Shown here piece by piece: positions 15,601 to 16,765 of a DNA stretch of 64,000 nt. Under the pieces are notes generated by a model. The model worked only from the letters and a program-made list of their open reading frames with translations, was not told the DNA's origin and did not search any database. Made by a program: the position numbers and the translations under genes. The DNA comes from Candidatus Babeliales bacterium. GTDB taxonomy: Bacteria; Babelota; Babeliae; Babelales; JBFXEV01. Every line of letters starts with the position of its first letter. Position 1 is the first letter of the stretch. The stretch spans positions 905,994 to 969,993 of the forward strand of contig JBFXEV010000001.1 in assembly GCA_050179755.1 (NCBI GenBank), given 5' to 3'.

Positions 15601-16700
15601 CTGGTCAAAAGCTTGCAGAATGGGATCCACATAACAAGGTTATTTTGACTGAGCGTGCAGGTAAAGTACAATACGTTGATTTAATTAAGAATATTACTAT
15701 ACAAGAGCGCTTTGACGAAGCGACTAAGAAATCAAGCAATATTGTGCTTGAGCATAGAAACGAAAAGTATCAGCCTGCTATCAGCATTGTTGATAAAAAC
15801 GGTGATGAACTTGCTCATTACTTCTTGCCTACCGGTTCATACATGGTAGTAAAGGATGGTGAAGAAGTTAAAGTGGGTGATATTTTAGTTAAAATGCCTC
15901 GTGAAATAACAAAAACCAAAGATATTACCGGTGGTTTACCTCGTATTGCTGAGCTCTTTGAAGCACGTGCACCAAAAGATCCTGCAGTACTTGCAGATAT
16001 TGATGGTGAGGTTGTCTTTGGTGGCTTATACCGAGGTATGCGCAAAATATCAGTGGTGAATGGCCAAGAAGCACATGATTACTTTATCCCACGTGGTAAA
16101 CAATTAAACGTGGTGAGTGGCGATCAGGTGACTGCAGGTGACTTGTTAACATCTGGTACACCAGTGTTGCATGATATCTTGCGTATTATGGGGCCTGAGG
16201 TATTGCAAAGATATCTTGTTGGTCAGATCCAAGAGATTTACCGCTTACAAGGTGTTGATATTAACGATAGACACATTGAATTAATTGTACGGCAAATGTT
16301 ACGTAAAGTGCGTGTCGTTGATTCAGGAGATACAGATTTCTTGATTGGCGATCGTGTGGATCGTATTCACTTTAAGACAGTTAATGAAGTGTTGCGTGCA
16401 GAAGGTAAAAAACCGGCGGTGGCACGTCCAACGCTTATGGGGCTTACCCTTGCATCGCTTGATAGTGAAAGCTTTATTTCAGCAGCATCGTTCCAAGAAA
16501 CTACAAAAATTCTTGCAGAAGCGGCTATTGCTGGCAGAGTTGATCACTTGTATGGCTTAAAAGAAAACATTATTATTGGTAAACTAATACCAGCAGGTAC
16601 CGGTATAGCCTCATTCAGAAAGAAATTTTTGGGTGATGACCGCTCAGAATTTGAGCGAGAAGCGGCACTTGAAGAAGAGACTATTGTAACAGGCGCGTAG
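12594..16700 (+). CDS. rpoC: DNA-directed RNA polymerase beta' subunit
   Basis: NADFDGD catalytic motif, Zn finger, GEPGTQLTMRTFH; GTG start overlapping rpoB end. Confidence 0.99.
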   Translation: MNNMLQRFKEYLNITQFNAMKLSIASPEKIRSLSYGEVKKIETINYRTLKPERDGLFCARIFGPVKDWECNCGKYKRMKHRGVTCEKCGVEVIQARVRRERMGHVDLVAPVCHIWFLKGIPSYLSLILDMAVKDLERVIYFDAYLVIDQGKSPYPRKTLLAAAEYEKYTEMHPEDHAFKAESGAEAVRLVLSLMDLSLEIAQLDKEYEKATSVAARHKLMRRIKVLSSMHQAGIRPEWMIMTVLPVLPPDLRPLVPLEGGRFASSDLNELYRRVLNRNIRLHRLLAIEAPSVIIKNEKRMLQESVDALIDNGRRGQPVRGTNRRPLKSLSEMLRGKQGRFRQNLLGKRVDYSGRSVIVVDPELHMNQCGLPKIMALELFKSYVYSELLERELAVNLRVAKRMVEDAEPEVWDVLEDVVKDRPVLLNRAPTLHRLGVQAFYPILVDGKAIKIHPLVTPAFNADFDGDQMAVHVPLSSKAQLESQKLILSTQNLLSASNGRPIAVPHQDMVLGLHYMTKVRCNVKGEGITFGSLQEVITAYQFGQVHLHARIKLRLADNQVVETTVGRAILFEALPAGSDFHWINKVTKKSDLNKLIEKIYYRFGSEPTVICLDKIKKLGFYYATVSGVSFSMHDLIVPAKKDTIISKAEHEVQRIENLYMDGVITNGERHSKVISIWYGATASVANEMLTDFEAQNNESFLNKDKSDIPFNFIFMVLDSGAKGSSAQIKQLVGMRGLMSTPTGEIMETPVKSNFKDGLSVFEYFISTHGARKGQADTALKTANSGYLTRRLVDVAQDVTVTLDDCKTLGYIELEALQESGDIIYALANRAFGRVIAADVKDPVTGELLFRQGDIIYRQDMQKLADSAVSKLLVRSVLTCQAKRGVCAVCYGLDLSRLDLADVGTTVGIIAAQSIGEPGTQLTMRTFHIGGTASGTADQNQFSAKHAGKLQWRGIRTIENRDGQHVVLSRKARIVIVSEDGRELQQHTLEYGALLLVADGQEVTAGQKLAEWDPHNKVILTERAGKVQYVDLIKNITIQERFDEATKKSSNIVLEHRNEKYQPAISIVDKNGDELAHYFLPTGSYMVVKDGEEVKVGDILVKMPREITKTKDITGGLPRIAELFEARAPKDPAVLADIDGEVVFGGLYRGMRKISVVNGQEAHDYFIPRGKQLNVVSGDQVTAGDLLTSGTPVLHDILRIMGPEVLQRYLVGQIQEIYRLQGVDINDRHIELIVRQMLRKVRVVDSGDTDFLIGDRVDRIHFKTVNEVLRAEGKKPAVARPTLMGLTLASLDSESFISAASFQETTKILAEAAIAGRVDHLYGLKENIIIGKLIPAGTGIASFRKKFLGDDRSEFEREAALEEETIVTGA

Positions 16701-16765
16701 CTCAGTGGTAGAGCATTGCTTTGACGTAGCAAGGGTCAGCGGTTCAATCCCGCTCGTGCCTACCA
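16691..16765 (+). tRNA. tRNA-Val(GAC), overlapping the last 10 nt of rpoC
   Basis: AGGCGCG/CGTGCCT acceptor, TTGCT-TTGACGT-AGCAA anticodon arm, GGTTCAATCCC, ACCA. Confidence 0.95.

Follow-up and report, generated by a model that had tools for sequence, protein, structure and literature searches.

In this genome, a member of the parasitic Dependentiae, the rpoC gene, which encodes the beta' subunit of RNA polymerase, ends ten bases into the tRNA-Val(GAC) gene that follows it on the same strand. Its stop codon is most probably a tolerated, reversible borrowing from the tRNA in an old tRNA-punctuated operon, a reading to which we give a probability of about 0.68. Where U8-A9-G10 of the tRNA is in frame with rpoC, these nucleotides serve as a back-up stop. 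Loss of the upstream stop, by a point change or a short-spacer deletion, then adds few residues to a variable protein tail, and a fresh nonsense change reverses the overlap. The other two frames would drive ribosomes far deeper into, or through, the tRNA, and such arrangements are almost never seen.

The junction of rpoC and the tRNA-Val(GAC) gene

The features located in the window, i.e., the whole stretch of 64,000 nt that was analysed, are listed in Table 1. The rpoC ORF encodes a protein of 1368 aa, matches the rpoC_TIGR profile with 1653 bits and has the C-terminus ...EEETIVTGA followed by TAG. The sequence at 16680–16710 is ACT ATT GTA ACA GGC GCG TAG CTCAGTGG, and the overlap comprises the third base of ACA, GGC, GCG and TAG. 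The tRNA was found using ARAGORN and matched Rfam RF00005 with 65.2 bits over model positions 1–71. Its minimum-energy fold is a cloverleaf with an encoded CCA, and the fold energy (z = -0.97 against shuffles) is unremarkable taken alone. Hence there is a valid tRNA gene with a functional coding sequence stopping inside it, as in other same-strand CDS/tRNA overlaps. An in-frame stop at tRNA +8 is in itself unsurprising because U8-A9-G10 is common in tRNAs.

Table 1. Features of the rpoBC–tRNA–rpsO–pnp region (positions in the window).
Feature	Position	Strand	Basis or remark
rpoB	8279..12601	+	upstream gene of the same operon; ORF; TIGR02013, 1612 bits
rpoC (RNA polymerase beta')	12594..16700	+	ORF; rpoC_TIGR profile
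candidate internal sigma70-type promoter	16557..16585	+	conserved silent sites
rpoC/tRNA overlap, 10 nt	16691..16700	+	tRNA nt 1–7 = last Thr base, Gly, Ala; nt 8–10 = TAG (16698–16700)
tRNA-Val(GAC), single copy, CCA encoded	16691..16765	+	ARAGORN, Rfam, fold
G+C-rich hairpin repeat, directly 3' of CCA	16766..16803	+	BLAST
rpsO (S15)	17128..17391	+	profile match
pnp (PNPase)	17404..19497	+	profile match
rph (RNase PH)	19504..20310	+	profile match

Two short-read contigs, record 1 of X1 (16000–16791) and record 8 of X3 (16000–16736), match the sequence across the junction with neither a difference nor a gap. This DNA may itself derive from these two runs, which therefore do not provide independent support. 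A relative is represented by a 409-nt contig from a different study (X5 record 25; 16376–16765), which aligns with 38 differences and 0 gaps; the small-share runs X4–X23, among them X5, say nothing about habitat. None of the contig differences listed creates a stop, and a further 31 differences over four runs stand outside those listed. G001, a genome from this genus, shares the junction, and most of the changes in its final codons are synonymous. The sequence-only reading had placed the rpoC stop at U8-A9-G10 of the tRNA and had advised a check of read support. The ORF, ARAGORN, Rfam and the contigs agree with it, the support consisting of exact short-read contigs and a gap-free contig from another study.

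The rpoC tail beyond the PAGTG motif is about 31 residues long, acidic and variable (11–45 aa in relatives). Matches to solved beta' chains mostly stop at about residue 174 of the 199-residue query, and the residues added by the overlap lie mostly beyond the part of beta' that matches solved chains. At the other end of the gene, the rpoC ORF called from GTG overlaps the end of rpoB by 8 nt (12594–12601); the true start may be an ATG three codons downstream of this GTG.

The genome contains 34 tRNA genes, and only within tRNA-Val(GAC) does a same-strand ORF of 100 codons or longer end. It is the sole Val(GAC) gene, alongside one for Val(TAC); tmRNA is encoded as well. Its anticodon loop (16723–16729) is UUGACGU with G37, a feature common to all rpoC-selected relatives compared; A37 is usual in valine tRNAs. 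A tRNA-Leu gene with the anticodon AAG was found outside the window (genome C1:1001137–1001222). A leucine tRNA with A34 is rare in bacteria, and this A34 may be inosine-modified. The G+C-rich hairpin repeat of about 30 nt adjoins five other tRNA genes (6 BLAST hits), its further copies lying in genome C1 near 836853, 910589, 1034010, 1122250 and 1365457. Other repeat-like hairpins are located 3' of further tRNA genes of this genome. The repeat, possibly a REP-like element, is absent from the same place in relatives.

Stop positions in related genomes and their history

A total of 179 loci were gathered, 59 from a search of 61 genomes and at least 120 from a pattern scan. The removal of 8 loci without rpoC, 7 without the anchor motif, 1 with a short flank and 23 duplicates left 140. 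The tRNA-Val(GAC) gene was found 3' of rpoC in all 140 Dependentiae loci, of which those from the pattern scan had been selected by the tRNA and the others by rpoC. The rpsO gene followed the tRNA in 134 of 140, the rest being 5 short flanks and 1 locus without rpsO; the median distance from the tRNA end to the S15 match in relatives is 63 nt. Thus, rpoC, tRNA-Val(GAC), rpsO and pnp form one tight row conserved across Dependentiae. No tRNA was found in the available flank (up to 900 nt) of 119 rpoC ends from other bacteria. The loci L068 (841–1266) and L121 (71–366) carry an extra tRNA-Val(GAC), clustered with Asn and Asp tRNAs, besides the copy after rpoC. Departure of the tRNA from the operon in some genomes was considered but not supported, as four of the five genomes checked keep it after rpoC; the fifth has a distant RpoC (39% identity).

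The rpoC stop lies at tRNA +8 in 22 of the 140 loci (two of them, L135 and L148, are less certain, being from genomes with a frameshifted rpoC), at +19 in one and at +37 in one. It straddles +1 in five loci and precedes the tRNA in 111, with a median of 14 nt and a minimum of 4 nt between stop and tRNA. Four of the seven loci without the anchor motif were resolved later and contained no overlaps. The +8 position is the commonest single offset. Spacers of 0–3 nt were found in none of the 140 loci, those of 4–7 nt in 10 and straddling stops in five; the borrowed-stop explanation accounts only in part for the absence of the shortest spacers and the rank of +8 as top offset. The overlap therefore recurs in the order with gene order kept, including the same junction in G001, and this answers the call of the sequence-only reading for a look at related genomes.

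One frame of the tRNA contains a stop at +8, another contains stops at +19/+37, and the third is read through the whole tRNA unless the preceding base is T. About 4 in 10 loci have U8-A9-G10 in the rpoC reading frame. Counted by frame, in-tRNA stops occur in 22 of 62 loci with the +8 frame and in 2 of 47 with the +19/+37 frame, and an ORF through the tRNA occurs in 0 of 31 loci of the third. A null model of simulated deletions puts only 38% of in-tRNA stops at +8. Because of these frame counts and this null, it appears that deeper reading is selected against or that +8 is preferentially kept. The pile-up at +8 would need no function, since an unmutable stop collects lineages without any benefit.

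In order to trace the history of the +8 state, a tree of 135 loci was built from partial RpoC, S15 and PNPase sequences (FastTree, midpoint root); five loci, none of them overlapping, were left off for short sequence. The state is scattered on the tree and requires 16 parsimony changes, i.e., 12–15 gains and 4–1 losses at equal cost. Shuffled +8 labels need 20.7 +/- 1.1 steps, and none of 1000 shuffles was as low as 16. Monophyly of the 22 loci was rejected by the AU test (p = 8.4e-9; 48 of 135 rows), with the reservation that kin loci are not independent and this and all other p-values given here are overstated. Overlap loci are nested with non-overlap sisters in clades of support 1.0, and the state lasts over 0.14–0.5 substitutions per site in several clades. 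Selection could also explain this phylogenetic signal and persistence.

Among the 13 nearest non-overlap relatives, 7 have the tRNA TAG as their next stop in frame, compared with 16 of 93 other loci (p = 0.007). The sisters L040 and L093 have an equal DNA distance (107 nt), and a single upstream stop separates their states. In L058/L060, L141/L026 and L126/L139 the distances are nearly equal and again one upstream stop separates the states. In the lineage of this genome, the corresponding figures are 86 nt and 111 nt in the nearest non-overlap relative, and a deletion seems to fit the origin of the overlap better here. An origin by spacer deletion alone, first suggested by tail lengths that are similar overall, was revised because close sister pairs point to stop gain or loss. 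Judged from the tree, the +8 state is polyphyletic and appears to switch via gain and loss of an upstream stop. The suggestion that rpoC had lost its own stop is supported in this form, as the state comes and goes in the order and a single in-frame stop further upstream separates sister genomes. The other suggestion, a scar of rearrangement, fails because gene order is conserved throughout.

A candidate promoter within rpoC and the proposed fate of the transcripts

Scanning of the 300 nt 5' of the tRNA revealed one promoter-like position matched in 79 of 135 loci. It sits in the codons of the conserved GLKEN..IGKL motif, with a -35 element from Leu-Lys, 17 nt, TGn and a -10 element from Gly-Lys-Leu. 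In this genome, the -35 is TTAAAA (16557–16562) and the -10, after a 17-nt spacer and TGn, is TAAACT (16580–16585). With 8 of 12 consensus matches, this copy is under the threshold of a simple scan and weaker than that of the relatives, where the commonest -35 is TTGAAA. The hexamers, 16–18 nt apart as expected for a sigma70-type promoter, are conserved beyond protein constraint. In a test that kept the protein sequence unchanged and shuffled the synonymous codons of each gene, the site was present in 74 of 125 loci against 25.1 expected (z 9.4 in the last ~340 codons; runner-up z 2.5; maximum z over 150 shuffles 3.45), a result to be read knowing that the site was found by the scan and tested on the same loci and that kin are not independent.

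At the Gly codon of the site, 89% of loci use GGT, the highest share among 23 conserved Gly positions (mean 56%); at the Leu codon, 59% use TTG, again the highest share, among 16 conserved Leu positions (mean 31%). Comparison with GC-matched outgroup rpoC genes, restricted to those matching the motif pattern, gave 116/131 Dependentiae vs 15/24 outgroup genes for GGT (p = 0.003) and 110/131 vs 12/24 for Leu TTR (p = 0.0006), the outgroup genes thus showing only a weak bias. Both key codons were found in 14 of 21 overlap loci and 80 of 103 non-overlap loci, i.e., the overlap loci show a somewhat weaker bias. A different DNA or RNA signal could lie behind this codon usage; a promoter appears the simplest reading, since two constrained elements stand at promoter spacing. 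The search for an internal promoter in the rpoC tail, proposed by the sequence-only reading, thus yielded a candidate with good comparative support. Transcription from it would start near 16592, about 99 nt before the tRNA, and it probably drives tRNA-rpsO-pnp separately from rpoBC. Ribosomal proteins are required in larger amounts than polymerase; this and the short gap between the tRNA and S15 make an internal promoter plausible.

A simple promoter and terminator scan of 15800–17500 gave 4 promoter-like sites vs 4.4 expected, none above chance, and no terminator-like site at the rpoC stop or tRNA. A promoter-like site with 10 of 12 matches (15645–15672) was set aside, as it is not among the conserved sites in relatives. 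The TATTGT/TATTAT hexamer ending 3 nt 5' of tRNA +1 is too close to serve as a -10 box. In this genome, TTGACA/TTGAAA promoter-like sites accompany many free-standing tRNA genes. A boxA role for TTGAAA, present in 16 of 52 long spacers, was considered and dropped, since the same hexamer also occurs as a -35 box at such genes. Separately, 131 of 138 Dependentiae loci use TTC for the Phe of SFQET (~16491–16493), although the G+C content is low.

As in an operon processed by RNase P, the genome encodes a bacterial RNase P RNA (RF00010, 199 bits) and RNase P protein (PF00825, 42.5 bits). The tmRNA, SmpB, ArfB and RNase E/G are encoded as well, and RqcH gave a weak match below the cut-off. The 96%-complete genome yielded no gene of the RNase R/II family, so decay of non-stop mRNA may differ from that in E. 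coli; pnp and rph (17404–20310) encode adjacent phosphorolytic exonucleases.

Any transcript with the rpoC stop necessarily includes tRNA nucleotides 1–10. According to the sections of PMC2241853 considered, RNase P frees the tRNA of E. coli secG-leuU and the upstream mRNA is gone in less than 30 s (Mohanty and Kushner). With mRNA and tRNA on one transcript, secG-leuU may serve as a model for both the spacer and the overlap states. A stop-codon overlap is not described in those sections, the secG-leuU transcript is short and ended by a terminator, and here, in contrast, the tRNA is located mid-operon between rpoC and rpsO-pnp.

Under the borrowed-stop explanation, a short transcript from the promoter within rpoC would supply most of the tRNA-Val, rpsO and pnp RNA; as this transcript would lack the rpoC start, ribosomes would not prevent the tRNA from folding. 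RNase P could still cleave the long rpoBC transcript at tRNA +1 and so remove the rpoC stop, and this cut would start rpoBC decay with or without the overlap, as in secG-leuU. Stranded ribosomes would be freed by tmRNA-SmpB, with tagging and degradation, or by ArfB, which would release a beta' short of its last three residues only (Thr-Gly-Ala). In spacer loci, roughly 14 bases 3' of the stop would be left unprotected by the same cut. The overlap would carry only a small additional cost, because rescue is available and spacer mRNAs would lose 3' protection too; because the secG message vanishes in less than 30 s after such a cut (PMC2241853, sections considered), the overlap should add little.

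It had been proposed from the sequence that maturation of the tRNA would leave a non-stop rpoC mRNA in need of ribosome rescue. The premise holds, as the genome has genes for both parts of RNase P and for tmRNA, SmpB and ArfB; a cut at tRNA +1 of the long transcript would remove the stop. Coupling of RNA polymerase synthesis to tRNA processing as the purpose of the overlap was not supported: 111 of 140 loci have no overlap, mRNAs with the median 14-nt spacer would lose 3' protection too, and there is a candidate internal promoter, a feature that the sequence-only reading had itself listed as counting against its proposal. Regulatory coupling thus seems less likely.

Known systems and alternative explanations

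In animal mitochondria, excision of tRNAs defines mRNA ends (tRNA punctuation). Similarly, five loci carry T|AG or TA|A across tRNA +1, and a cut would leave an end of U or UA; stop completion of the mitochondrial type is thus conceivable for these 5 of 140 loci only. Unlike in mitochondria, the cut message of the +8 state would end after two bases of a sense codon (AC in this genome), and an added A cannot rebuild a stop.

Hudson, Lau and Williams (2014, PMC4131195) reported, in the passages considered, 250 same-strand overlaps with an upstream CDS among 115,660 t(m)RNA genes of 2031 genomes, mostly due to few clade-level events; 44 of them were FtsW/RodA/SpoVE-family genes with tRNA-Ile in Helicobacter. 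These passages name such overlaps candidates for non-stop mRNA and mention neither rpoC nor Dependentiae. As in those cases, the protein gene here stops inside a downstream same-strand tRNA gene. Unlike them, as far as these passages go, it switches at least 16 times across one order, is strongly biased in frame and has a candidate promoter inside the coding sequence. The full list behind Table 4 of that paper, if it exists, could hold a related case. For selB-selC, the hypothesis is that tRNA processing gives non-stop mRNA, and in Dyella/Luteibacter the overlap is partial and close relatives regained an upstream stop (Mukai 2021, PMC8124441). The whole tRNA-Sec is often nested in the selB ORF, whereas here the overlap is limited to 10 nt and none of 140 loci reads through the tRNA. 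SelB binds its tRNA, which offers a rationale for feedback; the protein here is RNA polymerase beta', which has no special link to tRNA-Val.

A literature search of openly available papers, mostly at title and abstract level, found no published account of an rpoC/tRNA-Val overlap in Dependentiae, and the passages considered of the Babela genome paper (PMC4378268) mention neither rpoC nor such an overlap. The kind of overlap has already been catalogued (Hudson 2014; Mukai 2021), and the additions made here are the switching across an order, the depth limit and the hidden promoter.

Several other explanations were weighed. It is unlikely that the overlap is a translation-gated switch, in which terminating ribosomes on the acceptor strand and D arm keep RNase P off the rpoBC mRNA and falling translation lets the tRNA fold, so that the stop is cut away, message and nascent beta' are destroyed, and overlap lineages are selected for sharper coupling. 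The geometry permits it, the enzymes are encoded, +8 is the commonest offset and persists within clades, and the same logic was proposed, as a hypothesis, for selB-selC (PMC8124441) and, in the passages considered, for smpB-ssrA (PMC4131195). However, 79% of the loci have no overlap, close sisters differ, and the pile-up at +8 is expected from an unmutable stop. In addition, loci with a spacer would be tied to RNase P nearly as closely, and ArfB was not significantly tied to overlap (19/22 overlap genomes vs 35/51 others, p = 0.15; the genomes are incomplete, and the 51 were picked from 111 with enrichment for sisters).

A two-transcript design, quite unlikely in our estimation, would combine such gating with the internal promoter. 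The silent-site promoter in the beta' motif would supply tRNA-Val, S15 and PNPase, while the same tRNA on the rpoBC message would be a translation-gated self-destruct site, shielded by terminating ribosomes in overlap lineages. When translation slows, RNase P would remove the stop, and the balance of ArfB (near full-length beta') and tmRNA (degradation) would set RNA polymerase output.

An overlap ancestral in the order and often lost by new nonsense codons, i.e., a mildly harmful relic and not a repeated gain, is improbable. When a gain is given twice the cost of a loss or more, the most parsimonious history has an overlapped root and 24 losses, and the in-frame sisters L060, L026, L093 and L139 fit reversion as well as gain. 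However, equal-cost parsimony on this midpoint-rooted tree of three partial proteins prefers a non-overlap root (16 vs 18 steps), and there are big clades without overlap, with spacers in all three frames (45/27/39).

It is very doubtful that the long transcript goes uncut in practice, with the tRNA coming from the internal promoter only and the overlap having no consequence for rpoC. The promoter signal in rpoC would suit this, and frequent terminating ribosomes could hold part of the tRNA unfolded. On the other side, deeper overlaps are under-represented, which indicates some cost of reading in (though perhaps that of a longer protein tail), and RNase P cleaves secG-leuU efficiently (PMC2241853, sections considered).

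A sequencing or assembly error concealing an earlier stop was prompted by frameshifted rpoC in some relatives, including the genomes of L135 and L148, and is so unlikely that it can practically be dismissed, since short-read contigs match exactly, a contig of a different study aligns without gaps, and G001 and 20 further loci share the junction.

Overlaps of this kind have so far been argued from single loci; here an essential 4-kb gene switches many times in one order, and sister genomes differing by one stop provide natural paired comparisons. The frame counts give a rough limit on ribosome entry into a tRNA gene, with 10 nt tolerated and deeper entry rare. The silent-site promoter would explain the expression of tRNA-Val, rpsO and pnp apart from rpoBC where there is little intergenic room for a promoter, and it lowers the case for a regulatory reading. 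The gated-decay model, if true, would be a new way of tying the supply of RNA polymerase to translation.
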